Shown: positions 1 through 20,582 of the stretch, piece by piece
How positions within the stretch are numbered: position 1 is the first letter of the stretch
Layout: the number at the start of each line of letters is the position of its first letter
NCBI GenBank assembly: GCA_016464795.1
Contig: JAEKNN010000005.1
Span: forward strand, 65,483-129,482
Direction: 5' to 3'
Source: Candidatus Amunia macphersoniae
Lineage (GTDB): Bacteria; Chloroflexota; Dormibacteria; Aeolococcales; Aeolococcaceae
Length of the DNA: 64,000 nucleotides
Program-made: the position numbers and the translations under genes
The notes under the pieces: generated by a model
Told to the model about the DNA's origin: nothing
Databases searched by the model: none
The model's input: the letters and a program-made list of their open reading frames with translations, nothing else

Positions 1-1
1 C

Positions 2-964: not shown

Positions 965-1060
965 TTGAGGCCGTGGCGCCCTCACCATGGTCGACACCCG
1001 CGGTTCACGCCCCGACGGCGCCGGCCTTCGCTTCTCCAGCGGCCCTTATACTCGGCCCAC

Positions 1061-3405: not shown

Positions 3406-3460
3406 CCACACCGTCAGAGTCGCGCGCTGAACCCGCCAGCACGGCCACATCACGCCGGCA

Positions 3461-4771: not shown

Positions 4772-4834
4772 AGCGACCTCGCAGGCCGGCCCGAGCCCGA
4801 CGCCTGGTCCTCCCCAACCCCGACACTGATCCCC

Positions 4835-5587: not shown

Positions 5588-5598
5588 GGAGATGCGGG

Positions 5599-7827
5599 TC
5601 AGCCGAGGCTGACCATGGAGTCGAAGATGGCGTCGCCGTTGCTGTGATCACCGTTCCACTGGTCGCTGGGTGCGAAGACCACGCCGATCACCACGGCGCC
5701 GTCGGCGGTCACTCCAGAGCCGATGCGAAGGTCGCCGTTGTTGTAGCTGTAGTACGCCTCGTTGGCGCCTGACAGGCCAAGGAAGTAGGGCGCCGTCTGC
5801 TCCTGCGTGAATTGTGGTGACACCCCGCCGGGGAGGAATCCGGTGAGGTTGAAGAACTGGTCGCGGAACGCCTTGGCCTCAGTGGCCTTGTCGGTGCCGG
5901 CGGCGACGCTCGGGTTCTGGAAGCGCAGCACGTAGACGCCGGAGGTGTGGTCCGAGCTGACCAGGCCGCCGGAGAATCCCTGCAACACGTTGGTGGTGTC
6001 CACCTTCCACTCCGGAGGCCGGCAGACTGAGGCACCGACATCAGCGAGCTGGGCCGCGCTCAGGGTGGGCAGGGTGGCATCTGTCCGGGCCGCCCCCGCG
6101 AGATGACCGTTGACGTACACCTCGACCTTATAGCTGCCGGGCTGCAGGCATTGCTGAGCCACCTGCAGATAGCGGGTGATGTAGTAGTAGCCGTTGACAC
6201 CGCCGGACGAGTTGGCCACCGGAGTCGAGTTGCCGCTGACTGGTTCGAGCACTGCCCAACCGAGCTTGGCGGGCCCCTGGTAGTACCACTGCGTGGAGAT
6301 CTCGTCCTTGGTGGGGTCGTAGCCAGACAGTTTTGCCGTCCACTGCAGCTCCCCGCCGAACACCTGGATGGCGGTGTTGGCTAGTCGCACGGTGGCTTGG
6401 GAAGAAGGCATCGTGGGATTGTCGACACCGCCGATGATCAGCTCCTTCATCGCCGAGACCTGCGCTGCGAGGTCTGGTCGATGTGATGCCAGCAGGTCGA
6501 GCGGGGTCAACGCCCCACCTGCGTATCCCTCTTCGACGAAAGTATTGTTGCGCGGCGTCTTCTTGTCGACGTCCGTGTAGAGAGTGTGCGCAACCGCCTG
6601 CTGGTAGGCATCACGTGCGGCACTGAGGTCACCCGCGCCCAGGTGGGCGATCCCCTCGTTGTAGTAGAGGAGAGGATCAGCGCTGTCCAGCTTCAGAGCA
6701 TCGGCGAGGTAGCCGAGCGAGGTCGAGTAATCAACCGGGCGGTTGTCGGCGATGGCCAGCAGCAGGCGGTTGGCGGCGAGGTTGTTGAGCAATTGCTTGT
6801 CGCGATCACCAAGGCTGTACGCCATCTGCAGGTCGTCGCCCTGCGCCTGCAGGGCCTGCGCCGAGCTCACGCTGACGATGAGGTCGCTGCGCTGTGGTGA
6901 GCCGAGCAGGAAGCGCACCAGCGATCGGTGGAGGTATGCGTTGGCGAAGGTGGGACGCAGCGCGATCGCGCTGCTGAACGCGTCGTCGGCTGCGCGTAGA
7001 CCGCTGTCCCCGGGCTTCGAGTAGAAGGTGTTCATGGCCGCGACGCCATCGGCATATGCGTCCGCGGCAGCGTCGGGTGCCGCCACCGGGGTTCCGAACT
7101 GCAGCGCGACAGTCCACACCCCGCCCACGGCGACGAGCAGCAGCCCGAGCCCCACCAGCATCCGGCGCATCCGAGCCTGCAGGGTCAGCGACAGCCCGAA
7201 GAGGTAGATGGCCACGGCGAACAGGGTCAGCATCACTGACAGATAGCCGACCCTGGCCTGCCAGTCGGCCCGCAGCTGGTTGGAGGCGTCCTGCAAGGCG
7301 AAGAGGCGATCACTGGCGTGCTGCTTGGCGGTCAGCTCGAGGTTGGGGAACCTCGGGTCCTGCGCGGGCGCGCTGTTGCCGTCGGCCTTGAGGTCGGACA
7401 GCTGGCCGGTGAGCGCGGCGAGCTGGGTCCAGCGGGTCTCCTCGAGCTGGAGCAGGCCGGCCTGGGCGGAGCCCGCCGTGATGGTGGGCAGGAGGAACTG
7501 CTGGAAGGCGTTGCCTGCGCGTGCTCGCTGTTCGGCGCTGTACGCGAACGCCTCGATCTGGGTGCGCGCTGCATCGTTGGCCCGGACCAGCTCGCCCTGG
7601 CGCTGGATGCCGAGCAGCTGGGCCTCGCCGCCGGCGCGGTCGGCATTGTTGTCGGCAACGCTGTGCAGGTACTCGATGCAGGCCACACCGAGAGTGGACA
7701 CGACGATGAGAACCGCGAGCACCCTTGCGAATCTCTCGCGCATCTCGTGCGCCTCAGGGACCTCGATGCGCTCGGGCGGCTTGTACATGCCCACCCCTAG
7801 GCCCCCAGCTTGAGCACGACGAGCCAC
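5599..7827 (-). CDS. Large polytopic membrane protein with an N-terminal TM - coiled-coil - 2xTM module followed by a TPR-like region and a C-terminal extracytoplasmic domain (hypothetical)
   Basis: Hydrophobic helices VLAVLIVVSTLGVACIEYL, VGYLSVMLTLFAVAIYLFGLSL and MLVGLGLLLVAVGGVWTVALQF. Ala-rich helical repeats with TPR character (AYLHRSLVRFLLG, LYYNEGIAHLGAGDLSAARDAYQQA). The N-terminal module is paralogous to the downstream 291-aa ORF. Confidence 0.6.
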   Translation of the reverse strand: MARRAQAGGLGVGMYKPPERIEVPEAHEMRERFARVLAVLIVVSTLGVACIEYLHSVADNNADRAGGEAQLLGIQRQGELVRANDAARTQIEAFAYSAEQRARAGNAFQQFLLPTITAGSAQAGLLQLEETRWTQLAALTGQLSDLKADGNSAPAQDPRFPNLELTAKQHASDRLFALQDASNQLRADWQARVGYLSVMLTLFAVAIYLFGLSLTLQARMRRMLVGLGLLLVAVGGVWTVALQFGTPVAAPDAAADAYADGVAAMNTFYSKPGDSGLRAADDAFSSAIALRPTFANAYLHRSLVRFLLGSPQRSDLIVSVSSAQALQAQGDDLQMAYSLGDRDKQLLNNLAANRLLLAIADNRPVDYSTSLGYLADALKLDSADPLLYYNEGIAHLGAGDLSAARDAYQQAVAHTLYTDVDKKTPRNNTFVEEGYAGGALTPLDLLASHRPDLAAQVSAMKELIIGGVDNPTMPSSQATVRLANTAIQVFGGELQWTAKLSGYDPTKDEISTQWYYQGPAKLGWAVLEPVSGNSTPVANSSGGVNGYYYITRYLQVAQQCLQPGSYKVEVYVNGHLAGAARTDATLPTLSAAQLADVGASVCRPPEWKVDTTNVLQGFSGGLVSSDHTSGVYVLRFQNPSVAAGTDKATEAKAFRDQFFNLTGFLPGGVSPQFTQEQTAPYFLGLSGANEAYYSYNNGDLRIGSGVTADGAVVIGVVFAPSDQWNGDHSNGDAIFDSMVSLG

Positions 7828-8672
7828 AGCGCCACGCCGCTGACGGCAGCGACAGCGCCCGCCCCGGCGAACATCCGCCTGATCGTGGGGCGGGTGAACT
7901 GGGCGAGAGTGAGGAAGAGCAGCGCGGCGACGAAGAGGGTCACCAGCCCCACCAGGTTCACCGATTCGGTGTGCTTGGTGTCAGCCTGATCGCGGATCGC
8001 GTCAGGGCGCAGCTGTTGCAGGTCGGAGTTGTTGTTCTCGAGCGTCTGCAGCGCGGCTTTGGCGTCGTACTTGAGAGGGGCGGTGGCGTCGGTCGCGGAG
8101 GGCAGCGCGGCTTGGAAGAAACCCTGCCAGCTCCGCGCCAGGACGCGTTCGCTCTCGGCTTGGGCATGCAACAGGGCGGCGCTGGCGGGGTCGGATGACT
8201 GCAGCGCGGTGGCCTGGGCATCGAGTGTCTGGGCCGCCTTGATGTGCTCCTGGTAGGGCGCCAGGTAGCGCAGGTCCTCGTCGACAGTTGCCTGCAGGTC
8301 GGTGATGATCTGCTGCTGGCGAGAGGCATCCTGGATGCCCTGCTGGTCGAGCCGGCGGGCGTCCTGCTCGGTGAGGGTGGCGCTGAACGCGACCACGGCG
8401 CCGAGGATGGACACGACCGCGATGGCGATGGCCACCCAGGTGCGGAACCGATCCTCAGGCTCGCCGGCCTCCACCGTCGACTCGAGGTCGGCCATGGTCA
8501 TGGCGCCAGTCAACAGCGATGGTGTGGCGAGCGGCTCCTCGTCGCCGAGCTCGGACGGATGCTGATGCCGAGGGGAGAAAGGCGGAGGTGGCGGCGGGGG
8601 AGGAGGCGTCCACGCGTTGCTGTCGTCCGGCATGGCAACGGATCTTACGCACGCCCCGGCGGTTGCCTGCAA
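7797..8672 (-). CDS. Membrane protein, a paralog of the N-terminal module of the preceding gene (Pro-rich N-terminus, TM, coiled coil, two C-terminal TMs)
   Basis: PPPPPPPPPF run. TM helix WVAIAIAVVSILGAVVAF. Coiled-coil region with Q/A-rich heptads. C-terminal TMs LVGLVTLFVAALLFLTLAQF and AGAGAVAAVSGVALWLVVL. The segment RMFAGAGAV aligns with RRMLVGLGLL of the 742-aa protein. Confidence 0.55.
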   Translation of the reverse strand: MQATAGACVRSVAMPDDSNAWTPPPPPPPPPFSPRHQHPSELGDEEPLATPSLLTGAMTMADLESTVEAGEPEDRFRTWVAIAIAVVSILGAVVAFSATLTEQDARRLDQQGIQDASRQQQIITDLQATVDEDLRYLAPYQEHIKAAQTLDAQATALQSSDPASAALLHAQAESERVLARSWQGFFQAALPSATDATAPLKYDAKAALQTLENNNSDLQQLRPDAIRDQADTKHTESVNLVGLVTLFVAALLFLTLAQFTRPTIRRMFAGAGAVAAVSGVALWLVVLKLGA

Positions 8673-8840
8673 ACCTCCACAGCCGAACCCGCGCGCGGGA
8701 GGGGCGTCGGAGCCCGGCCGACACGGCTCGTCCGTGGTGTCACACAGGGCGCCGCTGCTGTCCTAGACTACCGCGAGCTTCGGCCGGTTCGGGCCGATTT
8801 CGGTAGGAGGGGGCGCCGATCGGCGGCGCGGAGGAAACAC

Positions 8841-9965
8841 GTGACTTGTGACCATTGCGGTCGCCAGGTGCCGGACGCCGTCTTCTGCACGGCCTGCGGT
8901 GCCCACCAGGGAACCACCGGGCAGAGTGGGAACCCGCGACTGCGGCACACGCATTACGCCGCGCATCCCGGCGAGCACGTCGGCCAACCGTCGGTGTTCT
9001 CCACCATCTTCCCCCATCTCGGCCACGGCCGCATCCACGAGTTCCGCTATGCCTTCCTGGGCGCCTTGGCCGTGCTGATCCTGCTGGTGGGCACGGGGCT
9101 GGTGGTGGCGGCGCTGCTCGGCGCCATCTTCCTGGTGCCAATCCTCTACCTCGTGTACCTGTACGAGGCCCAGGTGTACCGGGATGAGCCGGCGACAGTG
9201 CTCGGCTTCACCATCGGCGGCGGCGTCATCCTCGGCCTGGTGGTCAGCATCGTTGCCGACAAGGTGCTCCAGGGCACTGGCAAGGAAACCACCGTCGGCC
9301 AGATCGTCGGCCTCACTGTGATCCTGCCGATCGTGCAGGTCATCGCCATGGCGCTCCCCGCAGTTCTCCTGCGCGGCCGCCCGGCCTTCCCGGAGACCAT
9401 CGATGGCTTCGCCTTCGGCGTTGCCTCGGGCCTCGGATTCAGTGTCGCCGAGGGTCTGGTGCGATTCTCGAACGTGTTCACCGACCAGGGGCTGCAGACG
9501 GACTCAGCGAACTGGATCGCCCCGCTCCTCAGCGTCGCCATCCTCATCCCGCTGCTCCATGGCAGCGCCGGCGGCGTGGTCGCCGCCAGCCTGTGGCGGC
9601 GAGACCGTTCCGGCAACGCGCGCTCCCTCGGACTCGCCGGAGTTGTGGTCGCTGTGGCGCTGAGCATCGCCTTCTACCTCGTCGGTGAGCTGCTCCAGAT
9701 CAACGGTGTTGCCGCCCTCGTGGTGCTGGCGTTCCAGGTGCTGCCCGTCGCAGCACTGCTCGTGTACGCCCGGTTCCTGATGCACCACGCTCTCCTGGAG
9801 GAGGCAGCCGACATGGGATTCCGTCCTGCGGTGTGTCCGCACTGCCATCGCCACATCGTGGCCGCCGGCTTCTGTCCCAGCTGTGGGGTGGCGATCAGCG
9901 CGGGGCCACGATCCCAGGCGGACCTTGGTGACCCCATGGCCGCCGGCGCCGCGGAGGTCCGCTAG
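8841..9965 (+). CDS. PrsW-family-like polytopic membrane protein with N-terminal and C-terminal zinc-ribbon domains (module A)
   Basis: GTG start at 8841 preceded by GGAGG. N-terminal CDHCGRQVPDAVFCTACG and C-terminal CPHCHRHIVAAGFCPSCG ribbons. The core aligns to B. subtilis PrsW blocks: YLYEAQVYRDEP versus YFYLKDQYDNEP, FGVASGLGF versus YGASVSLGF, LLHGS versus LLHGS. It contains six or more TM helices. Confidence 0.7.
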   Translation: MTCDHCGRQVPDAVFCTACGAHQGTTGQSGNPRLRHTHYAAHPGEHVGQPSVFSTIFPHLGHGRIHEFRYAFLGALAVLILLVGTGLVVAALLGAIFLVPILYLVYLYEAQVYRDEPATVLGFTIGGGVILGLVVSIVADKVLQGTGKETTVGQIVGLTVILPIVQVIAMALPAVLLRGRPAFPETIDGFAFGVASGLGFSVAEGLVRFSNVFTDQGLQTDSANWIAPLLSVAILIPLLHGSAGGVVAASLWRRDRSGNARSLGLAGVVVAVALSIAFYLVGELLQINGVAALVVLAFQVLPVAALLVYARFLMHHALLEEAADMGFRPAVCPHCHRHIVAAGFCPSCGVAISAGPRSQADLGDPMAAGAAEVR

Positions 9966-10949
9966 ATGCCCCTCGGGTGCACCCGCTGCGGCACCGTCAA
10001 CCCCGATGGCAACGCCTTCTGCCAGAACTGCGGCGCTTCCCTGGCGGCCGCGGCACCACCGGGTCCTGCGCAGCAGTCTCCTCCGGCGACGCCGCAGCAG
10101 CCGGCACCTGCGTGGGCGCCTGGCCCGGCAGCCGCCGCGCCAGCGGCCGTCGTCGTCCCGCCGACGTACTACGCGAATCCCGCGCAGAGCCAGTACTACG
10201 CACCCCCGCTGGCCGCTCCTGGCGGTACGGGCCAAGTCCACCGGCTCTCGCGCAATGCACTGTTCGCGATCATCGGCAGTGCCGTCCTGGTAATCGCCGG
10301 CGTGGGAGCCATCGTCGCTCTCGCCGGCAAGGGGCCCAAGCCAACCCCGTACAGCCCACCGCCGGTGGTCTCAGCGGCCCCAGTCACATCCGGCCCAGTG
10401 ACCCCAAGTCCAACCAGCTCGGGCGCACCCCGGCCGACTCCACCGCCGGGCGGCCAGACCGGCCAGGTGATCAACGTGGGCTTCGCCTCCTTCCCGGCGA
10501 TCAGCGGGTTCACCCAGCAGACTGCTCAGGGCAACGTGACGGAGCTCGACCCCAATGACAAGAGTGGCCAGCTGTTCGTCGCCATGCTCCCCGCGGGCGC
10601 GATCACCACCAATCAGCAGGTGAGCGACAGCCTGCTCGCAGGTGATGCCAAGTCGTCTCCGGACGCGGTGCGGTGCTCGCCCGACGCTCCGGGACCGACG
10701 CTCGCCGGAACCGGCGGGGCGCAGATCGCCACCGTGGTGGTGACCATCTGCGAGACGCTGACCCCCCAGAACGGCCAGGCATTCAAAGCCGTCGATGCGT
10801 ACGTGGCCGGCCTCGCCAAGGACTCCAGCGGCGCCCCGGTGCAGGTGCTGATCAACCCCTTCGCACCCGACTCGAGCTTCGCCAACTTCGTCAAGGAGAT
10901 CCCGCAGGGCTGGGCCAGCCAGGTCCAATTCAACGCCACGGCGCGCTGA
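9966..10949 (+). CDS. Single-pass membrane protein: N-terminal cytoplasmic zinc ribbon, Pro-rich linker, TM helix, extracytoplasmic domain of unknown function (module A partner)
   Basis: CTRCGTVNPDGNAFCQNCG zinc-ribbon. Pro/Ala/Gln-rich low-complexity linker. TM helix ALFAIIGSAVLVIAGVGAIVALA. Globular C-terminal region of about 200 aa. The ATG directly abuts the stop of the PrsW-like gene (TAGATG). Confidence 0.65.
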   Translation: MPLGCTRCGTVNPDGNAFCQNCGASLAAAAPPGPAQQSPPATPQQPAPAWAPGPAAAAPAAVVVPPTYYANPAQSQYYAPPLAAPGGTGQVHRLSRNALFAIIGSAVLVIAGVGAIVALAGKGPKPTPYSPPPVVSAAPVTSGPVTPSPTSSGAPRPTPPPGGQTGQVINVGFASFPAISGFTQQTAQGNVTELDPNDKSGQLFVAMLPAGAITTNQQVSDSLLAGDAKSSPDAVRCSPDAPGPTLAGTGGAQIATVVVTICETLTPQNGQAFKAVDAYVAGLAKDSSGAPVQVLINPFAPDSSFANFVKEIPQGWASQVQFNATAR

Positions 10950-10975
10950 GGCGCCGAGCCGGAATATTCACGCCA

Positions 10976-12670
10976 GTGCCACACCGCCCGCGCAAGCTCA
11001 CCGCCTGCTTCGTCGTCCTCACCGCAGCGCTCGCGGGCTGCGCCTCGGCCACGTCCACGAATGGTCCGTCGCCGCGCCCCGCGCGCGTCGCTGAGGACCC
11101 GAGCCGCCCGTCGCTTGCCGCCGCCATCCGTCTGGGCAGAGACCTGGGCCCGATCGCGGCCGACCAGACGCTCACCGTCAGCCTCGGACTGCAGGGTCGC
11201 GATCAGGCGGCCCTGGCGGCGCTGGTCGCCCGCGGCGGGCGGGTCACGCCTGCGCAGTACGCGCAACGTTTCGGGCCCGCCCCCACAGCGGTCGCGGCGG
11301 TGGTGGCGACGCTCTCCGCCGCCGGGCTGCACGAGCAATGGCAGGCTGGTCAGCCGGTGCTCTCCGTGTCGGGCCCGGCCGGTGCCATCGAACGCACCTT
11401 CTCCGTGGCGGTTCACAACCACATCGGTCCTGACGGCACCCGGTTCCACGCTCCCACCCATGCGCCGACGGTGCCGGCCTCGCTGGCTCCCGAGGTGACC
11501 TCGGTCGCGGGACTGCAGGATTACCCCACCCACCGCACTCAGGACCTGACCAACCCCAGCGGCTTCCGGCCGACCGACGCCGCCGACTTCTACGACGTCG
11601 CGCCGCTGCAGAAGGCCGGGCTCAACGGGACAGGCCAGACGATCTACCTGGTGGAGATCGACGAGTTCGGCGCTCCGGCCCTCCAGGCCTACGCGTCCAA
11701 GTTCAACCTGCCGCCGTTCGACGTCACAGTCAAGCGGGACCCCACCAGCTGGGGTGATCCTGGCGCCGAGGGCAACAGCTCCAGCGAGACCGATCTCGAC
11801 CTCGAGATCATCCATGGCATTGCCCCCATGGCCAAGCTGGTCGTGTATTACGCCAGCGGCAAGGGGGACAACGTCGACAAGGCGCTCCGAGCTCTCGTGC
11901 AGGATCACCCGGCGAGCATCGTGACCATCAGCCTGGGGCAGTGTGAGGCCAGCGTCGACCCAGCCGTCCCGCCGCAGGACGATGCCGCCACCACCGCGGC
12001 CGCCGCCAGCGGGACCACCATCTTCGTCTCCAGCGGGGACCGGGGAGCGTATGAGTGCATCCCCAACGGTGACAACAACACCGTGTCGCCGAACTACATC
12101 TCGGCGCTGCCCTCGGTGACCTCAGTGGGCGGCACCACGGTGTACATGAGCGCGACCGGCGGCTACGGCCGCGAGTCTGCCTGGGGAGAACCCGCCGAGC
12201 AGTGGGGCTCGGGCGGCGGCAACAGCAAATTCTTCAAGCTGCCCGCCTGGCAGACCGGTCCCGGTGTCAAGAACCAGTTCTCCGATGGCAGCCGCCAGCA
12301 GCCCGACGTGGCTGCCAACGCCGACAGCCTCAGCGGCTGGGACATCTTCGGCTCGCAGCCCGGCGCCGAGGGTACGGTGGGCGGTACCTCCGCGGCCGCG
12401 CCGTTCTGGGCGGCGCTCACCGCGCTCGTCGACCAGAACCTTGCTCAGCTGAAGCTGCCCTCGGTCGGATTCGCCAATCCCCCGCTCTATGCCTTCGCCC
12501 AGAACCCCTCCGGGCTCCCCGCCAACCCGTTCCATGACATCGTCACCGGCACCAACCTGTTGAACCCGGCGACGCCGGGCTGGGACTACGCAACGGGCCT
12601 GGGCAGCCCCGACGCGGGCGCGCTGGCAGACGACTTCGAGTGGTACGAGAAGAACGTGGCGCCGCATTGA
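10976..12670 (+). CDS. S53 (sedolisin/kumamolisin-like) serine-carboxyl peptidase lipoprotein with an N-terminal pro-domain
   Basis: GTG start. Signal peptide with lipobox LTAALAGCAS. Pro-kumamolisin activation-like N-terminal domain. Catalytic-domain motifs IYLVEIDEFG, SSGDRGAYEC and the Ser-nucleophile block GGTSAAAPFWAAL. Confidence 0.82.
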   Translation: MPHRPRKLTACFVVLTAALAGCASATSTNGPSPRPARVAEDPSRPSLAAAIRLGRDLGPIAADQTLTVSLGLQGRDQAALAALVARGGRVTPAQYAQRFGPAPTAVAAVVATLSAAGLHEQWQAGQPVLSVSGPAGAIERTFSVAVHNHIGPDGTRFHAPTHAPTVPASLAPEVTSVAGLQDYPTHRTQDLTNPSGFRPTDAADFYDVAPLQKAGLNGTGQTIYLVEIDEFGAPALQAYASKFNLPPFDVTVKRDPTSWGDPGAEGNSSSETDLDLEIIHGIAPMAKLVVYYASGKGDNVDKALRALVQDHPASIVTISLGQCEASVDPAVPPQDDAATTAAAASGTTIFVSSGDRGAYECIPNGDNNTVSPNYISALPSVTSVGGTTVYMSATGGYGRESAWGEPAEQWGSGGGNSKFFKLPAWQTGPGVKNQFSDGSRQQPDVAANADSLSGWDIFGSQPGAEGTVGGTSAAAPFWAALTALVDQNLAQLKLPSVGFANPPLYAFAQNPSGLPANPFHDIVTGTNLLNPATPGWDYATGLGSPDAGALADDFEWYEKNVAPH

Positions 12671-12683
12671 TGGCGGCAATGCA

Positions 12684-13847
12684 ATGACCCAGCAACAGCC
12701 GCCGCCGCCGAGCGCTGCCGTGACCCTGGAGTCATGCCATCACTGCGGTGAGCTGGTCCCCGTCGGTGCCTTCTGTGGGCATTGCGGTTCCAACCTCGTC
12801 GACACCAGTGGCGGTCGTTCCCGCACCCATGCATTCGCGGCCGCGCCCCACGAACAGGTGGCCAGACCCGTGGTGATCAGCACCCTGTTCCCGCACCTGA
12901 CACGGCGTCACGCGCAGAGCTTTCAGCTGGTCCTGGCAGCCGGCATCCTGCTGGTGGTGGCTCTGGCGGCGCTGCAGCTGGTCGCGCCCGCCACCATCGC
13001 CGCCGCCGTGGTGCTGCCGGTGCTCTACCTGCTCTACCTGTATGAGGTGGAGGTGTACCAGCACGAGCCCGTCCAGGTCCTGCTCCTCACCGTGGTCGCC
13101 GGTGCCGCGCTTGGCGTCGCCTTCACACTGGTCACCGGCACATTCACCAGCGCCAGCCTCAACGGCACCCAACAGGGCGTCCTGGTGTCCGCTGTGCTGA
13201 TCCCGGTCATCGCCCAGGTGCTGATGGTGGCCACACCCCTGCTGCTGCTCTCCCACGCCCACTTCGACGAGACGCTCGACGGCCTCACCTTTGGCGTGGC
13301 CACGGCGTTGGGCTTCACCATGGCAACCGTCATCGGCGGCAACTGGCACCTGCTGACCGCGCCGCTGGTGGGCGGAGCCTCCAGCGAGGATGTGCTCAGG
13401 ATCCTTCGCGAGGGCGTGCTGGTGGCGGTGGTCAACGCCAGCACCACGGGCCTGGTGACGGCGGCCCTGTGGCTGCGGGTGCGCCGGCGCTCCCGCCGGC
13501 GTTTCGTCAGCCCCTGGCGTGGTCTCCAGGCCTCGGTGGTGGTGGCTTTCGCCGTGCAGATCGGCCTGGGCCTGGTGTCGTACTACGGACGCAGCCTGCT
13601 CGCGGTGGTGGTCGCGTATGCCATCGTCGCTCCGCTGCTGCTGATCTGGCTGCGCGTGGTGCTCCATTTCGCGCTCCTCGAGGAGGGCGCCGAGCTGGAG
13701 ATCGGTGACGCCACCGCCTGCCCCGAGTGCCATCGCATGGTGCCCACCATGGTCTTCTGCCCCGCCTGCGGCGTCGCCCGCTCGGCCAGCGCGCGTCAGG
13801 CCCGGCCCGAGCTGCCGATGCCGGCAGCAGCGGAGGCTCCGGCCTGA
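12684..13847 (+). CDS. PrsW-family-like polytopic membrane protein with N- and C-terminal zinc ribbons (module B, paralog of 8841-9965)
   Basis: CHHCGELVPVGAFCGHCG N-terminal ribbon and CPECHRMVPTMVFCPACG C-terminal ribbon. Shared blocks with module A (LYLLYLYEVEVYQHEP, LSHAHFDETLDGLTFGVATALGF, LHFALLEEG). The HAHFDE block is identical to B. subtilis PrsW HAHFDE. Confidence 0.7.
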   Translation: MTQQQPPPPSAAVTLESCHHCGELVPVGAFCGHCGSNLVDTSGGRSRTHAFAAAPHEQVARPVVISTLFPHLTRRHAQSFQLVLAAGILLVVALAALQLVAPATIAAAVVLPVLYLLYLYEVEVYQHEPVQVLLLTVVAGAALGVAFTLVTGTFTSASLNGTQQGVLVSAVLIPVIAQVLMVATPLLLLSHAHFDETLDGLTFGVATALGFTMATVIGGNWHLLTAPLVGGASSEDVLRILREGVLVAVVNASTTGLVTAALWLRVRRRSRRRFVSPWRGLQASVVVAFAVQIGLGLVSYYGRSLLAVVVAYAIVAPLLLIWLRVVLHFALLEEGAELEIGDATACPECHRMVPTMVFCPACGVARSASARQARPELPMPAAAEAPA

Positions 13848-14641
13848 TGGTGCAGGCACCCGTCATCGGTTTCTGCGGCCGCTGCGGAGCGCCCTTCACC
13901 GCTGCCTCCGGCAGCTTCTGTGGCCGCTGCGGCAACCCCGTGGCAGCCGCGCCGCCGGTGGCCTCGGGCTACACCTACCCGGTGGCGCCTCCCGGCAGCG
14001 TCCCGGCGATGCAGCACAAGCTCTCGCGGCAAAGGCTGTGGATCTTCGGCGCCGGCGCGGTCATCGCCCTGGTGGTGATCATGACCGTGGTGGTGGTGGT
14101 GGTCCGGCCGCTGGGCACGACCTGCCACTTCTCGTGCTCCAGCCAGCATGGACCGCCGCTGGTGGGCAACTCGCTCTACAAGAACGACAAGTTCGGCTAT
14201 TCCGTCGAGTACCTGGCGGCCAGCACCAAGGTCGCCTCGAGCGATGCCAACGGCGTCGTTCTGAACGTCGGTCAGGGATCGCAGATCAGCTTCACGGGCA
14301 CCTCGGGCACCGATGTGGATGGTGCCCTGCAGTCGGCCTTCAAGGGCATCGACTCCAACACCTTCCAGGACCTCCAGCCGGTCGGGCCGGTGCGCGGCGC
14401 GGAGATCGGCAACGTGCCCGCCAAAGGGACTGCCTACAAGGGCAACTTCGTCCCGCCCAACGGGGGGGCGAGCGGGCCGGTTGGCGCCATCGTCATGGCC
14501 GCATCCTTCAACAACGTGACGGTGGTCACCGTGATGTTCAGCGGCTACTCGACCGACCAGGCCAACCAGCCGTATGGGCTGGCGGAGGGCTCGTCGCTCG
14601 ACTACCCGATCACGCTGACCCACTTCCCCGGGTCGCCATAG
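13847..14641 (+). CDS. Single-pass membrane protein with an N-terminal zinc ribbon, TM helix and extracytoplasmic domain (module B partner)
   Basis: The ATG overlaps the upstream stop (ATGA). FCGRCGAPFTAASGSFCGRCG ribbon. TM helix IFGAGAVIALVVIMTVVVVVV. C-terminal globular region of about 180 aa. Confidence 0.65.
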   Translation: MVQAPVIGFCGRCGAPFTAASGSFCGRCGNPVAAAPPVASGYTYPVAPPGSVPAMQHKLSRQRLWIFGAGAVIALVVIMTVVVVVVRPLGTTCHFSCSSQHGPPLVGNSLYKNDKFGYSVEYLAASTKVASSDANGVVLNVGQGSQISFTGTSGTDVDGALQSAFKGIDSNTFQDLQPVGPVRGAEIGNVPAKGTAYKGNFVPPNGGASGPVGAIVMAASFNNVTVVTVMFSGYSTDQANQPYGLAEGSSLDYPITLTHFPGSP

Positions 14642-14652
14642 TCCGAGGCCCT

Positions 14653-16992
14653 TCAGCGGCCAGTCCGGGTGCGCCGGCGGCGGCGCCGCGCTGCCACTGA
14701 GGCGACGCCGATCACCAACCCGCCGGCGCCCATGGCGCCCAGGGCTCCCATCTCCGCGAGAGCAGTCGGCGGCGTGGATTGCGGGACAGTGGTCTCGATG
14801 GCGCTGACGCAGCCCGGCGGCGGTGTGCCGATCACCACGTACGCCGCAGCCCCCAGGTTGCCCCCGGCGCGGCCGGCGTTGTTGGTCGCCGACACGGCGA
14901 TGACCGCGGTGTTGGCCGGAACCTGGGACAGGGTGAGCTTCTCGGCGGTGCCGGCAGGGGATGCGGGTGCCACCAGGGCGGGCTCCGGGAACCCGGGAGA
15001 GGATCCCTCCGCCGAACAGGCGTAGGTGCGCACCTCGAAGTTGACAGCGTTGCCGCAGGCACCGTGACCGGTGGGCGCGGTGAAGGAGAGCGACTCACCG
15101 CCGCCAGTGGGGGCGCCGCTGAGGTCGGTGATGGTGGACGGCCGGTCCGCGACGGTGCTGAGGTTGCCGGTGTTCCAGCCGTCGTGACGGAACTTCGGCG
15201 ACGAGGCCACGGCGCAGGCGTTGGCCGGTGTGTTCCAGACGAACAGTGATCCCGATCGGGTCAGCGACACCAGCTTCAGGTTGGGGTCGGTGCCCAGGGT
15301 GGTCACCAGGGGCACGGCGATGGTCCAGTCGCCGGTGTTTTTGGTGAAGCCGGGGAGCTCGGCGCCTGCCGGCGTGATCGCGCGCAGGTCCGAGGTCGCC
15401 GAACCCTCGATGAGCTCCTGCAGGCCGGTCCCGCCCGGACCGATGTCGGCTGCTGCCGGTCCCGCGAGGAACTGCAGGTCGTTGACGAAGTGGGGGTAGG
15501 CAGGGTGCATCTTGCCGGTACTGACGCTCCAGGCGGCCAGCTGGTTCTGGGCGTTGAGCTGGTGATCGTTGATGGCCACGTCGAGCAGCTTCTTGGTGCC
15601 ACTGGTGGCGGTGGTGTAGACGATGTCCCCAGACCCGGTGAGGTCGGCGAACGCACCCTCACCGAAGGCCGGGACATAGGGTGAATCGACGCTGTTGCCA
15701 CCGCTGTTGACAGTGGAGTCCAGGGAGCGCTGCTGCGACGACGACCCGTCAGCGCCCGCCCCGGTGCCGTAGCAGGAGCTGCCGTCCGACTGGAACACGT
15801 ATGCAGGACCGGCAGCTGACGAGACGCCCACCTTGAGCCCCGGCTGGTTGCTGACCGGGCAGCTGAAGGCCGCCAGCGAGGCGCCGGTGTCGATGCCGGT
15901 CCCCACCTCGGGCAGGACCGACATGTCGGCGATGCCCACCTTCACCGGCCAGTGTGGCGCGTAGGCATTGCTCGGCACGGCCGCGGGTGGCGCGGCCATG
16001 CACGTTGAGAGTCCGTGGCAGTAGCCATCGGAGTACACCGCGTACAGTCGGCTGTTGCCGGTGGGAACCAGACCTGTCGACTGGAGGACCTGGGCGAGCG
16101 GGAATGAGTCGGCGGTGGCGTTGAAGCCGCCGTCACGGGCCGAGGCGTACTCTTCGTTGCGGCCGACGAGGATCTCCTGATGCCCATCACCGAGCAGGTC
16201 GCCGACAGCAGCCGTGCTGACGATCTTGGTACCGATATCCGCGCCACTGTTGGCCACCAGTGTCACCCGGTGGGTCACCGGGTCGACCGACTGCACCTTC
16301 TCGGGGGATGCGAGCAACACCGGGAAGCCCGGGCGCTGCGCACCGTCGCCGTTCCAGGCGTAGAGGTGCCGGTCCAGCGACCCGTCGATGATCGACAGCT
16401 GTCCGTTCTTGTCGAGGTCGGCCAGGGTCGGCGAGGCGAGGAAGCCGAACTGCACGCGGTTGTCGGTGTTGCGGTTGAAGAACGGCGGGGTTCCCTGGGC
16501 GCTGTAGTCGGGGTTGGCGCGCACCGGGAAGCCGGGGCGAAGACTGCCGTCCGCCTCGAAGGCGTAGATGTAGCCTGACATGTCGGCAGCGACCACCTCG
16601 AGGTGACCGGTGCGGTCGAGGTCGCCGACGGCGACGCTGGCGATGATCGCCGAGTGCACCCGCCCCGCCGCCGCGGCCACCTCAGGGTCCCTGAAGGCGG
16701 CCTCACCGGTGTGGTAGGCAAGCGGGCTCACCGACACCGGCCACCCCGGCAGTTCGGCGCCGTCGCTCCTGAGCGCGTGGACCTGGCCGTCGCTGGTGCC
16801 GAAGACTATCTCGTTCTGGTTGTTGCCGAGCAGGTCTGCCGCCGCCGGAGAGCTGGCCCCGTCGGCGCCGAGCTGCAGAGGAAAGTTGGCCGCCGACGTG
16901 CCCACACCCGCGACTGAGTCGTCGTGGTGCGACTGCAGGGTCTTGCGATCCTCGCCGGTCAGATGGTGGTCATCTGTCACCTGGACGCGCAC
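14653..16992 (-). CDS. FG-GAP/beta-propeller repeat surface-protein segment with a C-terminal membrane anchor. It is in the same reading frame as the upstream S8 peptidase, separated only by one TAG codon, so it is probably the C-terminal part of a split or read-through subtilase gene
   Basis: Repeated FG-GAP-like units (VAVGDLDRTGHLEVV, DLDKNGQLSIIDGS, AVGDLLGDGHQEILVG, ADLTGSGDIVY). No N-terminal signal peptide. C-terminal anchor [23 protein letters not shown]. 19020 and 16992 are congruent mod 3, and the 23 codons between the TAG and the first start codon contain no stop. Confidence 0.6.
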   Translation of the reverse strand: MRVQVTDDHHLTGEDRKTLQSHHDDSVAGVGTSAANFPLQLGADGASSPAAADLLGNNQNEIVFGTSDGQVHALRSDGAELPGWPVSVSPLAYHTGEAAFRDPEVAAAAGRVHSAIIASVAVGDLDRTGHLEVVAADMSGYIYAFEADGSLRPGFPVRANPDYSAQGTPPFFNRNTDNRVQFGFLASPTLADLDKNGQLSIIDGSLDRHLYAWNGDGAQRPGFPVLLASPEKVQSVDPVTHRVTLVANSGADIGTKIVSTAAVGDLLGDGHQEILVGRNEEYASARDGGFNATADSFPLAQVLQSTGLVPTGNSRLYAVYSDGYCHGLSTCMAAPPAAVPSNAYAPHWPVKVGIADMSVLPEVGTGIDTGASLAAFSCPVSNQPGLKVGVSSAAGPAYVFQSDGSSCYGTGAGADGSSSQQRSLDSTVNSGGNSVDSPYVPAFGEGAFADLTGSGDIVYTTATSGTKKLLDVAINDHQLNAQNQLAAWSVSTGKMHPAYPHFVNDLQFLAGPAAADIGPGGTGLQELIEGSATSDLRAITPAGAELPGFTKNTGDWTIAVPLVTTLGTDPNLKLVSLTRSGSLFVWNTPANACAVASSPKFRHDGWNTGNLSTVADRPSTITDLSGAPTGGGESLSFTAPTGHGACGNAVNFEVRTYACSAEGSSPGFPEPALVAPASPAGTAEKLTLSQVPANTAVIAVSATNNAGRAGGNLGAAAYVVIGTPPPGCVSAIETTVPQSTPPTALAEMGALGAMGAGGLVIGVASVAARRRRRRTRTGR

Positions 16993-17061
16993 CGTCAGCG
17001 CGAACTGGTCCCAGTCCGGTGTCAGCCGCGCGTTGGTGCTGACCGGCGCCGAGCGCCAGTC

Positions 17062-18987
17062 CTACTGGGCGCCGTTGGGGTCGACCGCATGCGCGTACGT
17101 CGCCGGGGTGTACGCCGCCATCGCAGCGTCGACCTGCGTGCCTGTGAGCGTGGTCAGGGTGCCGTCGATCGGCTGCGTCTGCTCGGTGCTGGTGTACACC
17201 GTTGACCAATCTGATTCGTGGGGTTGCACGCCGTATGCGATCTGCACCTTGTAGGTGTACGAGCCCGCGCGTGAGGCCGCCACGTGTCCGGTGATCGGAA
17301 AGCTCTGCTGGGTGGCGGTGTCGAGGTTGGAGAACCAGCCGGGTCCGTTGATCGCCGCCTCCGGTGGAACCTTGCCGTTCAGCACCGCGCGCACCATGCA
17401 GTTGGTGTTGACCCGGCCGTAGCCCGTGTACTGGTCCCACCCGGCGATGCTGTGGAATCGCTCACCGCCCTCGAGCGACGTGAAGTTGCCAGGAGGCCCG
17501 GCGGGGTACACCGGATGGGTCTCGCACCGGTTGGGCGAGTACGGGCTGGCCGCGTCCTCCAGGTCGAGGTCATCGGCGCTGCCGGCCACGATCTGCTTGG
17601 CCTCCTCCGCGCTGATGGCGATCCCCGGTGCATACGGCTTGAGCTTCCCCAGCGCCACCTGGTTGCGCGCCTCACTCTCCACCAGGCCGACCATGCCCGC
17701 CGCCTTGCCGGTGGCCTCGGAGCTGCACGACACCGAGGGCACGCTGACGATGGTGTGGCCGCCGAAGTTGGTGCAGCCGTTCAGCACCAGGTAGCTGCGC
17801 CCCGGTTGCGGCGCACCTGTCGATGGCGCGCTGTTGGCAACCTCCGCCGAGCGGATGCTGTTGACCACCAGGGTGTGGTTGTACGACGAGGGCCAGTTGT
17901 GGTGGCCGGCCTCCTCATCCGCCGCTGAGGCCACCACCACCACGCCATGGTTGTAGGCGTAGTCGACCGCCGCCTGCCCAAGGCTCGAGTGATTGAGGGT
18001 GCCCAGCGCCTCCTGGATCACCGAGACGCCCTGGTCGGTGGCGAACAGCGACGCCTGGGCAAAGTCGTTGACGTCCGCGATGAATGAGTCGCCGACCTTC
18101 AACGGCATCACCATGCAGCTGGGGCAGGTGCCCACATCGCCCCGGTTGGTGGGCTGCGCGTTGTTCGCCTCCGCGTTCGAGTCGCGCGCCTCACCGGTGC
18201 CGTGGCCGTAGTTGGGCTCGTCGTAGGGGTCGTTGGTACGCTCCATGAAGTTCCAGCCGGCGATGTCGTGGCTGAACCCGTCGCCGTCGTTGTCGACGTT
18301 CTCGGCGCCGTTGCTGCAGTGACGTGGTCCGGTGGGGGTGATGTTGGTGAACTGTCCCAGTGTGTTCGTGGCTGCGTCGTAGCACGAGAACACCTGGATG
18401 AGGTCCTCTGGAGTCAGCACGCCGGGCAGGAACAGGCTGTGGGCCGGAGCGTTCACCCGGGGATCGCCGGCGTAGTCGTCGATGTTGAAGACGCCGTCAC
18501 CGTTGATGTCGTAGCAGTGTGGGAAGGGCGTGTTGGCGTGTCGTGCCGGCAGGGCCACACCGGCGCACGCTGTGTGGAGCGTGCCCCCCGCTGTGTACTG
18601 CGGTGGCGGCAGCTCCGACCAGTTGAGGTAGACCTTCTTGCGCAGGTCGCTCATGGCGCCGGCGTTGTTCCACTCGATGCCCGAGTCGAGCACCGCGATG
18701 CGCACGTCAGGTCGCCCAGTGGTTACGTGCCACGCCTTGTCGACGGCCGGGCCCATCACCCCGCCGAGCTCCTGAGCGGTGGGTGGCACCGAGGGGTCGA
18801 CCGCCGAGTTCATCTTGAAGTCGTTGGGGTCGAAGTCGTTGGGTGGGGTGGGGGAGTGCAGGTAGTCCTGGTAGGCGTAGGGGTCCTGGCCCGCGGGCGC
18901 CTGGGGCCACGGCATCGATGCCGCCGCTGTCATTGGCGACAGCGCCACGCCCAGCACGGCCACGACAACCGAGAGCCGCCGCACCAT
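17062..18987 (-). CDS. Secreted S8 (subtilisin-like) serine peptidase domain protein. As annotated it is terminated by a TAG that is in frame with the downstream FG-GAP segment
   Basis: Signal peptide MVRRLSVVVAVLGVALSPMTAAAS. Catalytic Asp block RIAVLDSGIEW, His block NYGHGTGEA, and a Ser-region / P-domain-like C-terminus. Confidence 0.8.
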   Translation of the reverse strand: MVRRLSVVVAVLGVALSPMTAAASMPWPQAPAGQDPYAYQDYLHSPTPPNDFDPNDFKMNSAVDPSVPPTAQELGGVMGPAVDKAWHVTTGRPDVRIAVLDSGIEWNNAGAMSDLRKKVYLNWSELPPPQYTAGGTLHTACAGVALPARHANTPFPHCYDINGDGVFNIDDYAGDPRVNAPAHSLFLPGVLTPEDLIQVFSCYDAATNTLGQFTNITPTGPRHCSNGAENVDNDGDGFSHDIAGWNFMERTNDPYDEPNYGHGTGEARDSNAEANNAQPTNRGDVGTCPSCMVMPLKVGDSFIADVNDFAQASLFATDQGVSVIQEALGTLNHSSLGQAAVDYAYNHGVVVVASAADEEAGHHNWPSSYNHTLVVNSIRSAEVANSAPSTGAPQPGRSYLVLNGCTNFGGHTIVSVPSVSCSSEATGKAAGMVGLVESEARNQVALGKLKPYAPGIAISAEEAKQIVAGSADDLDLEDAASPYSPNRCETHPVYPAGPPGNFTSLEGGERFHSIAGWDQYTGYGRVNTNCMVRAVLNGKVPPEAAINGPGWFSNLDTATQQSFPITGHVAASRAGSYTYKVQIAYGVQPHESDWSTVYTSTEQTQPIDGTLTTLTGTQVDAAMAAYTPATYAHAVDPNGAQ

Positions 18988-19145
18988 CTTTGCCACGGGA
19001 CATGCCCTCCCTTCCTTCACCTTCCCGGCCGGAACTATCGTGGTTCAGGGCAGGTCCTGTAAAGCGCTCTCCGCGGCCGTCGGGGGGTCGAGGCGATGCT
19101 CATCCAGCGCCGAGCGTCCGGCGGCGGCCGGTACACTCGCCGCCG

Positions 19146-20582
19146 ATGCCACCACCAGACCCAGTCGCCCCCGATCTGCTCGAGCGGCTGGTCTCGCTGT
19201 GCAAGCAGCGCGGCTTCTTCTTCGGCTCCAGCGAGATCTACGGCGGCATCAATGCGCTCTACGACTACGGTCCGCTGGGGGCACGGATGCGTCGCAACGT
19301 GCGCAATCTCTGGTGGCGGGCCATGGTCGAGCTGCGCGACGACGTCGAGCCCATCGAGACCTCGATCATCATGAACCCGCAGGTCTGGGTGGCCAGCGGC
19401 CACGTGGCCACGTTCACCGACCCGCTGGTGGACTGCACGGGCAGCTGTCGCAAGCGCTGGCGCGCCGACCACCTGGGCGACCTGCGCCGCGAGCGTGGCA
19501 AGCCGGAGGATGCCCCGGGGTGTCCTGAGTGTGGCGGCCGGCTCACCGAGGCGCGCCAGTTCAACCTCATGTTCCGCACCCACCTCGGCCCCGTTGCCGA
19601 CGACGCCGCCCAGGTGTACCTGCGACCGGAGACCGCGCAGGGGATGTTCGTCGACTTCGCCACGGTGGTCCAGGCGACCCGCCGCCGCCTGCCGTTCGGC
19701 ATCGCCCAGCAGGGCAAGTCGTTCCGCAACGAGATCTCGCCGAGCAACTCCATCTTCCGTACCCGCGAGTTCGAGCAGATGGAGATGGAGTTCTTCTGCA
19801 AGCCGGGCACCGACCTGGACTGGCACTCGTACTGGTGCACGGAGCGAATGCGCTGGTGGATCGAGGATTGCGGGGTTCGCGCCGGCCGGCTGCGTCTTCG
19901 CGCCCACGATGAGGACGAGCTGTCGCACTACAGCGTCGCCACCAGCGATGTGGAGTACCTCTTTCCATGGGGCTGGGGCGAGCTCGAGGGCATCGCCGAC
20001 CGCACCGACTTCGACCTGCGCAGCCACATGGAGGCGAGCGGTCGCGACCTCAGCTACTTCGAGACCGAGACCAACGAGCGCTACGTCCCCTACGTCGTCG
20101 AGCCGGCGGCCGGGCTCGACCGCGGTTTCCTGACCATGCTCATGGACGCGTACCACGAGGAGGAGGTGCGCGGCGAGAAGCGGGTGGTGCTGCGGCTCCA
20201 TCCCGACGTCTCACCGTGGCAGGTGGCGGTGCTGCCATTGAGCAAGAAGCCGCAGCTCACCGAGGTGGCGCGCTCCCTCGAGCAGCGGCTGCGTAACCGG
20301 TTTCGCACCGAGTACGACGAGACCCAGTCGATCGGCCGCCGTTACCGCCGCCAGGACGAGATCGGCACGCCGTTGGCGATCACCGTCGATTTCGACACCC
20401 TTGACGACAACGCGGTCACCATCCGCGAACGCGACGGGATGACCCAGGTGCGCGTGCCCATCGATACCCTGGAGCAGGCCTGTGAGGATCAGCTGGTCGC
20501 CAGCCGTGCCGCCGCACTGGATCGCGCGCGCACCGCCGCAGACCAAGCAGGTCAGTCGGCGCAGCCCCAGCGGCAGGGCTGA
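19146..20582 (+). CDS. glyQS: Glycine--tRNA ligase (class II, dimeric GlyQS type)
   Basis: LVSLCKQRGFFFGSSEIYGGINALYDYGPLG, class II motifs (FRNEISP, RTREFEQMEMEFF), and a C-terminal anticodon-binding domain. ATG at 19146, in frame with the tool ORF. Confidence 0.9.
   Translation: MPPPDPVAPDLLERLVSLCKQRGFFFGSSEIYGGINALYDYGPLGARMRRNVRNLWWRAMVELRDDVEPIETSIIMNPQVWVASGHVATFTDPLVDCTGSCRKRWRADHLGDLRRERGKPEDAPGCPECGGRLTEARQFNLMFRTHLGPVADDAAQVYLRPETAQGMFVDFATVVQATRRRLPFGIAQQGKSFRNEISPSNSIFRTREFEQMEMEFFCKPGTDLDWHSYWCTERMRWWIEDCGVRAGRLRLRAHDEDELSHYSVATSDVEYLFPWGWGELEGIADRTDFDLRSHMEASGRDLSYFETETNERYVPYVVEPAAGLDRGFLTMLMDAYHEEEVRGEKRVVLRLHPDVSPWQVAVLPLSKKPQLTEVARSLEQRLRNRFRTEYDETQSIGRRYRRQDEIGTPLAITVDFDTLDDNAVTIRERDGMTQVRVPIDTLEQACEDQLVASRAAALDRARTAADQAGQSAQPQRQG

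Follow-up and report, generated by a model that had tools for sequence, protein, structure and literature searches.

How should a stop codon be understood that falls in the middle of what otherwise reads as a single gene for an exported S8 protease? On the reverse strand of the window (the whole stretch of DNA analysed, 64 kb long), the frame at 14653-19020 comprises 1,456 codons with one internal stop when translated. A sequence-only reading of this DNA had claimed that an S8 peptidase ORF and an FG-GAP ORF lie in the same frame with TAG 17062-17064 as the single stop between them, and translation confirmed both the shared frame and the single stop. The start that it had placed at 19020 is probably not the true one: translation more likely begins at GTG 18996, which has the Shine-Dalgarno-like GGAAGGGAGGG, for a product of 644 aa. 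The terminal stop of the frame is a TGA at 14653-14655 on the same strand, and besides the TAG neither frameshifts nor further stops occur in the 14653-19020 frame. The GC3 value is 0.87-0.96 in the upstream part, in the 23-codon linker and in the downstream part, and the coding character is thus uninterrupted across the TAG. The features of the locus, in the direction of transcription, are the following:

19005..19015, reverse strand: Shine-Dalgarno-like sequence, 8 nt upstream of GTG 18996
17065..18996, reverse strand: upstream fragment of 644 codons, covering the predicted signal peptide, the S8 catalytic domain and five strands at the beginning of the beta-sandwich
18916..18996, reverse strand: predicted Sec signal peptide (MAKMVRRLSVVVAVLGVALSPMTAAAS), the top hydropathy window of the whole frame
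17566..18708, reverse strand: predicted Peptidase_S8 (subtilase) domain, Pfam PF00082, residues 105-485
16933..17361 (approximate bounds), reverse strand: predicted beta-sandwich domain holding the TAG, from an AlphaFold2 model of a segment of the ortholog P0001
17062..17064, reverse strand: premature in-frame stop TAG, codon 653 if counting begins at 19020, codon 645 if it begins at the likely start, 18996
17041..17061, reverse strand: stable hairpin GACUGGCGC-UCG-GCGCCGGUC, beginning at the first base after the TAG
14656..17061, reverse strand: downstream remainder of 802 sense codons, encoding the two final sandwich strands, then the FG-GAP/VCBS beta-propeller and further domains, and lastly the anchor
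16390..16623, reverse strand: best FG-GAP_3 repeat match (Pfam PF13517, 30.3 bits, cut-off 26.9), covering downstream-part residues 147-224
14656..14763, reverse strand: C-terminal hydrophobic segment and poly-Arg tail, a predicted membrane anchor and the second-highest hydropathy region

Relatives of the gene revealed what stood at the site before. In more than 100 homologs, a continuous protein of ~1,150-1,630 aa spans both halves and covers 83-99% of the read-through sequence, and because these homologs align colinearly through the junction, a chance same-frame adjacency of two ORFs is excluded. The site is a sense residue in 60 of 60 aligned homologs, none of which breaks at the TAG column; in the 22 homologs from the Dormibacteria clade this residue is Thr, Ser, Ala, Val or Pro. 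Likewise, one long open frame is present at 17 of the 18 related loci that are uncut by contig ends, the exception (L020) being possibly disrupted near its 5' end. The ortholog P0001, which is syntenic and adjoins GlyRS, is 75% identical over 97% of the length and carries ACC at the site, and the orthologs L001 and L002 have an intact gene with ACC (Thr) at the TAG position. Closest of all is a sister population (L038, from SRR22405878; 94.9% nucleotide identity), whose intact gene of 1,449 aa (P0124) carries TCA (Ser) at the site. These full-length homologs, the ACC of the syntenic ortholog and the TCA of the sister support the earlier claim of one ancestral cell-surface S8 protease of ~1,450 aa that has been cut by a single TAG, and the comparison with orthologs suggested at the time uncovered continuous ORFs in relatives and no homolog arranged as two genes. 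On the basis of colinear similarity over the full length, of the domain order (S8, propeller, Arg-rich tail) and of catalytic motifs matching those of the members, the window copy is a disrupted member of a family of S8 - FG-GAP propeller - TM/Arg-tail fusions. Among GTDB representative genomes the same species was absent and the best identity was 54-61%, and a codon-degenerate junction pattern gave no match in JGI metagenome contigs, although this pattern demanded Ala at codon 658 and would miss L038-like alleles.

With a probability of roughly 0.72, we favour a recent Ser-to-stop nonsense mutation over a recoding signal as the explanation of the TAG, which would make the gene a truncated allele or young pseudogene. 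Nonsense mutation was thus the strongest of the options that the sequence-only reading had listed, and sequencing or assembly error, programmed read-through and phase variation fared poorly. The ancestor would have been a single gene of ~1,447 codons whose Sec-exported product combined the S8 protease, the beta-sandwich, the FG-GAP/VCBS beta-propeller and a C-terminal TM and poly-Arg anchor. In this 'Candidatus Amunia macphersoniae' population, a serine codon (TCA or TCG) would have changed to TAG, so that ribosomes coming from GTG 18996 would stop at 17062-17064 and release an exported 644-aa fragment that keeps the triad but has lost propeller, anchor and the two final strands of the sandwich. 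Anchored function would be lost in this way, and the 802 downstream codons would most likely go without useful translation, any product of them being cytoplasmic. The TAG is one step from TCG and two base changes from the TCA of the sister; because the path from TCA needs two changes, a TCG intermediate is assumed. That the double base change was copied from a template, through gene conversion or template switching, was rejected, as the 15-mer around the TAG has no direct or inverted copy in the window at up to 3 mismatches. No paralog that could act as compensator or donor was found in the 64-kb window.

The upstream fragment, whose 644-aa product is called identically in the NCBI MAG (MBJ7607986.1) and in a Logan contig (L039), is a predicted S8 peptidase by profile, triad motifs and the fold of an ortholog model. 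The PF00082 match scores 62.2 bits against a cut-off of 21.8 (E = 6.6e-17), and the catalytic Asp, His and Ser follow each other in subtilase order (DSG112, HGTG273, SSEATG433) in motif columns shared without exception by 52 family members. The model of the P0001 segment (the ortholog, and not the window protein) has a subtilisin fold with a pTM of 0.89, and Foldseek gave it TM-scores, normalised to the target, of 0.66-0.74 against thermitase and subtilisin BPN'. The signal peptide, a call that rests on hydropathy and on reading of the sequence, would consist of a basic n-region, a core of hydrophobic residues and a c-region rich in Ala (...TAAAS). Scanned in 15-aa windows, the hydropathy of the frame has its two highest peaks at this signal near the N-terminus (residues 12-20) and at the anchor near the C-terminus (~1425-1440), in agreement with the earlier claim that the upstream part has a signal peptide and that the downstream part has a C-terminal anchor and no signal peptide.

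At the break itself, the predicted order of the beta-sandwich is five strands, the TAG, a clade-specific disordered loop and two further strands. In the model of the P0001 segment, the strand blocks at residues 460-532 and 580-602 have a mean pLDDT of 96-98, and the loop at 559-573 (pLDDT <50) begins at Thr559, the residue equivalent to the TAG. Distant homologs are without the loop and have the two parts of the sandwich joined directly. According to this model, the break is predicted to fall within a domain, in a loop of the beta-sandwich, and not between domains. Beyond it, the downstream remainder is colinear with the C-terminal 55% of full-length homologs, and the family consensus ends in the RRRR tail. 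In existing annotation this remainder is a separate CDS of 775 or 779 aa (775 aa in the MAG, beside the CDS of 644 aa), and the starts called for it (GTG 16992 and 16980) sit within a conserved beta-strand (FTFTVRVQ...). None of the in-frame GTGs scanned after the TAG has a Shine-Dalgarno sequence of the kind seen at 18996, and a search by hydropathy for a signal peptide at the start of the downstream part found none (maximum 0.89). Judged from these sequence features, the downstream part has no credible start.

We then considered the age of the lesion. Relative to L038, dN/dS is 0.18 in the upstream and 0.125 in the downstream part, and neighbouring genes have values of 0-0.18. Since both halves have low dN/dS and carry no other lesions, the stop is likely to be evolutionarily young, which would explain why the gene otherwise looks undamaged so far. 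Relaxed selection on the whole gene was rejected, as omega (0.13-0.18) is within the range of neighbouring genes. The low downstream dN/dS would, on the other hand, be equally expected were the region still translated. Derived amino-acid changes downstream number 17 in the window and 8 in L038, versus 17 and 19 upstream, an excess that is non-significant (Fisher p = 0.12). Three columns in which 22 of 22 homologs agree are moreover altered in the window alone (P774A, V1021A and Y1328F), as is one that 21 of 22 share (P658A). Together, the directional signal may be a weak hint of decay or relaxation downstream of the TAG.

Among the rival explanations, the one that survives best, unlikely as it is, holds that the nonsense allele has been kept since a soluble, unanchored S8 protease of 644 aa is useful and that the downstream part has been discarded. 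The upstream fragment does retain its signal peptide, a strong Shine-Dalgarno sequence and the D-H-S triad, its derived changes are balanced (17 vs 19) with 0 at invariant columns, and the TAG allele was found in two assemblies. However, truncation cuts off two confidently predicted sandwich strands after the catalytic domain, which would likely be destabilising, no natural short form ending here occurs among the homologs listed, and a mutation too recent for decay explains the same pattern equally.

Quite improbable, and ranking behind such an adaptive truncation, is that the TAG is an artefact in an organism that truly has a sense codon, having arisen through an error of sequencing or consensus calling or through the assemblers' choice of a minority variant. 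The source is a metagenome-assembled genome, analysed here at the level of its assembled sequence. An assembler glitch is nonetheless unlikely because a second assembly, the Logan assembly of SRR31090145, carries the identical TAG within 14,515 bp of 100.000% identity. These are the outputs of two assembly pipelines under different accessions, although the two might come from related or identical material. Moreover, the TAG differs from the sister codon at two adjacent bases, which is atypical of a single-base consensus error, and no homopolymer or repeat is present at the site. Within ~600 nt of the TAG no tandem repeats were found and no homopolymer is visible, and phase variation at a slipped-strand contingency locus was rejected on the same ground, there being no repeat at the TAG site.

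Lower still ranks read-through, programmed or leaky, by which some ribosomes would decode the UAG, perhaps aided by the hairpin, such that the gene yields a soluble protease alongside the complete anchored form. The hairpin has 9 bp and a predicted stability of -15.2 kcal/mol, making it the most stable 21-nt segment of the gene, and ~14 such sites occur per 64-kb strand; its position directly after the UAG amounts to a coincidence of ~0.2-0.5%, judged post hoc. A window-specific change from CCG to GCG (the P658A substitution) strengthens it, and the downstream part, with its low dN/dS and no further lesions, looks as it would if it were read. The unusually stable hairpin abutting the stop plays no part in the nonsense-mutation explanation. 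Against read-through, the stop is unconserved, with Ser in the 95%-identical sister and Thr in orthologs, and L038, with its sense codon, already has a weaker hairpin (-12.2 kcal/mol), which is missing in the more distant orthologs L001 and L002. With the UAG in the A site, furthermore, the 5' arm of the hairpin would be inside the ribosomal mRNA channel and the hairpin must therefore be melted at this point; known read-through stimulators are located several nucleotides further downstream of the stop. A search of the 64-kb window for tRNAs found a single tRNA-Asn and no suppressor, and no Rfam element was matched in 14000-20000 at E up to 1. TAG also terminates other genes normally: it ends 8 of ~40 high-GC3 ORFs, CorC stops at a TAG at full domain length, and L038 keeps the same TAG there, with RecO following as a separate gene. 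Genome-wide reassignment of TAG was rejected on these grounds, as TAG ends CorC and others at the expected length, and as CorC (3461-4771) and RecO (4835-5587), which lie in the same frame across a TAG, are two complete and unrelated genes. Known recoding sites (the bacterial SECIS at UGA, the PYLIS at UAG, viral read-through signals) have in common with this locus an in-frame stop that is closely followed by a stable stem-loop. By contrast, the stop in the window is unconserved, its hairpin predates the stop, is unconserved past the sister and leaves zero spacer, no dedicated tRNA or machinery was seen in the window and no Rfam family matched in 14000-20000. The neighbourhood of hairpin and TAG is probably coincidental. 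The specific form of this idea, a very young switch in which partial, hairpin-aided UAG read-through, strengthened by the lineage-specific substitution, yields released protease and a little anchored enzyme, is more doubtful again than read-through at large.

Least probable of all is functional fission into two separate working genes for an S8 peptidase and a VCBS-repeat protein, for although NCBI and the Logan gene caller each call both CDS and both halves are under purifying selection relative to L038, the called downstream starts fall within a conserved beta-strand and are not preceded by a Shine-Dalgarno sequence, the downstream product has no signal peptide despite an extracytoplasmic-type domain with a C-terminal anchor, the break is intra-domain in the model and the two-gene arrangement occurs in no homolog.

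Where does the recent nonsense mutation leave the gene with respect to known systems? Its closest kin are the uncharacterised S8 - FG-GAP/VCBS - TM/poly-Arg proteins (P0001, P0124), with which it shares colinearity over 83-99%, domain order, motifs and tail, and from which it differs in that only the window copy has the TAG, the others having Ser or Thr. Public annotation names the members of this family either 'S8 family serine peptidase' or 'FG-GAP-like repeat-containing protein'. Top matches in the fold search included multi-domain S8 proteases, namely a Streptococcus pyogenes serine protease (PDB 7edd, 5xyr), Vpr (8jmw), furin (1p8j) and fervidolysin (1r6v), which, like the window family, are exported and carry beta-sandwich domains behind the subtilase catalytic domain. 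Unlike the window family, these enzymes are anchored through LPXTG and sortase or are soluble, and they are without an FG-GAP propeller; at an identity of 10-13%, the resemblance is one of architecture and not of membership. We take the nearest functional analogues to be the cell-envelope proteinases of Gram-positive bacteria, such as SpyCEP/ScpC and lactocepin. Cell-envelope proteinases also have a C-terminal cell-surface anchor. The best NCBIfam match was to the mycosins, S8 proteases associated with type VII secretion (TIGR03921), which likewise carry a membrane anchor at the C-terminal end of an S8 protease, but membership was rejected at 52.3 bits against a cut-off of 278.75, mycosins are without the propeller that the window protein has, and the neighbouring genes examined included none for type VII secretion. 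With ordinary young nonsense pseudogenes the locus shares one premature stop at a sense site, no other lesions and conserved sequence, the adjacent hairpin being its only unusual feature.

The in-frame TAG is therefore also the origin of two proteins in public annotation, MBJ7607986.1 ('S8 family serine peptidase') and MBJ7607985.1 ('hypothetical / VCBS repeat-containing protein'), which should be corrected to pieces of one gene and should not count as separate families or architectures. A wider mechanistic significance would arise only if read-through were demonstrated. The locus is also a small case of how strains of an uncultured, slow-growing soil lineage lose genes: the surface protease went in one population through the probable nonsense mutation, and the sister population has apparently lost an adjacent 8-kb block that is rich in protease genes.

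The minus-strand frame at 14653-19020 comprises 1,456 codons, and translation revealed a single internal stop, the TAG at 17062-17064, before the terminal TGA. Of the options raised by the sequence-only reading, a genuine and recent Ser-to-stop nonsense mutation is by far the best supported (probability about 0.72), whereas sequencing error and programmed read-through receive low probabilities and slipped-strand phase variation falls for want of a repeat. As that reading had proposed, the S8 and FG-GAP open frames share one frame with this TAG as the sole stop between them, and the 23 codons after it are open; coding character is unbroken across the TAG, since GC3 lies at 0.87-0.96 in the part upstream of it, in these 23 codons and in the downstream part. 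The elements discussed here are as follows:

Upstream part, minus strand: Peptidase_S8 domain (Pfam, 62.2 bits)
Downstream part, minus strand: FG-GAP_3 repeats (Pfam)
14656-14763, minus strand: C-terminal hydrophobic segment and Arg run (hydropathy, family alignment)
17041-17061, minus strand: 9-bp hairpin with a 3-nt loop, GACUGGCGC-UCG-GCGCCGGUC, -15.2 kcal/mol, starting at the first base past the TAG

Hydropathy across the whole frame is highest in two places, a signal-like segment at the N terminus and a C-terminal segment that runs into RRRRRR, and the beginning of the downstream part has no comparable segment, which bears out the assignment of the signal peptide to the upstream and of the anchor to the downstream part only. 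The frame of the S8 open frame stood, but its proposed start at 19020 is probably not the true one: GTG 18996, preceded by the Shine-Dalgarno sequence GGAAGGGAGGG, is the more likely start and gives a 644-aa product matching the public annotation. Between the window (18996-19020, minus strand, GCATGTCCCGTG) and L038 (770-800, GCATGCCCGTG), a Logan contig from a sister population with an intact gene, a 1-bp indel near the 5' end alters the usable start codon (ATG in L038, GTG 18996 forced in the window) and leaves the signal peptide untouched.

Searches with the read-through protein carrying X at the stop returned >2,000 matches across several phyla to a large, uncharacterised S8/FG-GAP protease family, including >100 uninterrupted proteins, about 1,150-1,630 aa long, that cover 83-99% of the query. 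The best matches were P0001 (75% identity, 1,437 aa) and P0002 (69% identity), followed by ~20 Candidatus Dormibacteria proteins at 50-55% identity. None of 60 aligned homologs ends or starts at the junction, and the TAG column is part of a motif, NGDQ-[T/S/A/V/P]-DW, that is conserved within the Dormibacteria clade. As in the window, the neighbour of the P0001 gene is a glycyl-tRNA synthetase gene transcribed divergently from it, which makes P0001 a syntenic ortholog; the codon at the TAG site is ACC in both P0001 and P0002. Among the 18 related genomic loci that contig ends leave complete, 17 have a single long open frame running through the gene. The continuous orthologs for which a search had been suggested thus exist, and together with the sense codons at the site they support one surface protease of ~1,450 aa that is interrupted once, by the TAG. 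In the remaining locus, from an Acidobacteriota genome (L020), the open frame begins ~450 nt after the start of the tblastn match, and this copy may be disrupted near its 5' end. The Dormibacteria MAG TH_ant_mag_192 carries two paralogs of the family (L003 and L005, 59% and 55% identity to the window). The C-terminal hydrophobic segment and Arg run are conserved across this multi-phylum family (consensus end RRRR, alignment A1), for which we found no solved structure or characterised member outside the S8 domain.

An AlphaFold2 model (pTM 0.89) of the segment of P0001, the ortholog rather than the window protein, equivalent to window residues 90-800 comprises a subtilisin domain, five beta-strands, two short helices, a low-confidence loop, two strands (pLDDT 96-98) and the propeller. 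Because the first residue of the loop is the exact counterpart of the TAG, and distant homologs lacking the loop join the flanking segments directly in the alignment, the TAG most likely sits in a loop specific to this clade, within a single beta-sandwich domain and not in an inter-domain linker. Fold searches matched subtilisins, Vpr, a Streptococcus pyogenes serine protease (7edd, 5xyr), furin and fervidolysin, and the domain architecture resembles that of cell-envelope proteinases; mycosin was rejected (52 bits against a cut-off of 279).

Identity of L038 to the window is 94.9% within the gene and 95.5-97.7% in the flanks, and this contig encodes an uninterrupted 1,449-aa protein with TCA (Ser) at the TAG site. 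In the simplest history, the deeper lineage would have had Thr (ACC) and the Amunia lineage Ser (TCA or TCG), from which the window population acquired TAG; one C-to-A change separates TCG from TAG. Nei-Gojobori comparison of window and L038 gave dN/dS of 0.18 (dS 0.165) for the upstream and 0.125 (dS 0.132) for the downstream part, both within the range of neighbouring genes (RecO 0.18, CorC 0.04, Prs 0). Identity to P0001 is equal in the halves (upstream 74.8%, downstream 75.3%), and the frame contains no further stops or frameshifts. Derived changes, polarised with 22 homologs, were distributed as follows:

Upstream of the TAG: 17 in the window, 19 in L038; no invariant (22/22) column changed by one lineage only
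Downstream of the TAG: 17 in the window, 8 in L038; invariant (22/22) columns changed by one lineage only, three in the window (P774A, V1021A, Y1328F), none in L038

The downstream excess in the window is not significant (Fisher p = 0.12), its direction fitting relaxed constraint past the TAG. With dN/dS in the neighbours' range, no further lesions and no significant relaxation, the nonsense mutation is recent. A variant of it, in which the truncated, soluble form of the protease would bring a benefit of its own, is rather improbable. The protease region (14653-19789; 95.5% identity to L038, dS 0.13-0.17) is more diverged than the housekeeping flank 1-6240 (RecO, CorC, Prs, GlmU; 97.7%, dS 0.05-0.10), and faster evolution or recombination at this surface-protein locus could account for the difference.

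Exact-sequence look-ups matched the window's RecO, CorC, DnaG and PrsW proteins to those of an NCBI MAG, from a contig of 129,918 bp. The same 90% cluster includes two Logan assemblies, L038 (run SRR22405878) and L039 (run SRR31090145), the latter 100.000% identical to window 5144-19658, including the TAG. A sequencing or assembly error is unlikely because two assemblers agree on two adjacent differing bases, even if the two read sets are possibly not biologically independent. The NCBI annotation of this MAG, whose name Candidatus Amunia macphersoniae is credited to Montgomery et al. 2021 (PMC12281948), records two CDS, MBJ7607986.1 (644 aa, S8 peptidase) and MBJ7607985.1 (775 aa); correcting it is the chief value of the finding, the phenomenon itself being ordinary.

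Translation through the TAG would restore the full protein, and the adjoining hairpin is the most stable 21-nt segment within the gene, but read-through is very doubtful. First, TAG is a normal terminator in this genome: it ends 8 of ~40 high-GC3 open frames in the window, and CorC terminates in a TAG at full domain length, shares this TAG with L038 and has behind it a RecO gene that is complete and independent. Second, a tRNA search of the window found tRNA-Asn only, and the gene region has no Rfam match. Third, a role for the hairpin is doubtful because a weaker form (-12.2 kcal/mol) already stands beside the sense codon in L038, P0001 and P0002 lack it at the equivalent site, and by established ribosome geometry its 5' arm would lie inside the ribosomal mRNA channel with UAG in the A site. 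Such sites number ~14 per 64-kb strand. In the window the hairpin gains a base pair through CCG to GCG (P658A), a change that removes a Pro found in 21 of 22 homologs; this resembles drift, or quasi-palindrome perfecting within a dead segment, more than it does a signal under selection, and the hairpin beside the TAG is probably an unexplained coincidence. A slipped-strand phase switch is excluded, as no repeat was found at the TAG site. Fission into two working genes is highly improbable: the in-frame GTGs 24, 28 and 53 codons past the TAG lack a Shine-Dalgarno sequence, the first two, the called starts, fall inside the conserved beta-strand FTFTVRVQ (homolog alignment), and the downstream product has no signal peptide by hydropathy.

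The CorC/HlyC-family transporter (3461-4771, plus strand) and RecO (4835-5587, plus strand) share a frame with one TAG and 63 nt between them, superficially like the split protease, yet are two complete, independent genes. Compared at L038 5490-5500, the intact-protease contig lacks an 8,052-bp block (window 6241-14292) containing two PrsW-family membrane proteases, a zinc-ribbon protein and a sedolisin-like (Pro-kuma_activ + S8/S53) peptidase, its junction reading CCGAGGTG|GCTGTG|GTCAGCGG. Of two divergent genes (window 5599-7788, minus strand; 13847-14641, plus strand) L038 retains the 3' ends alone, so the gap looks like either a deletion in L038 or chimerism of the Logan contig; unless the contig is chimeric, the two populations have different lesions in one protease-rich neighbourhood, the TAG in the window and the block loss in L038.
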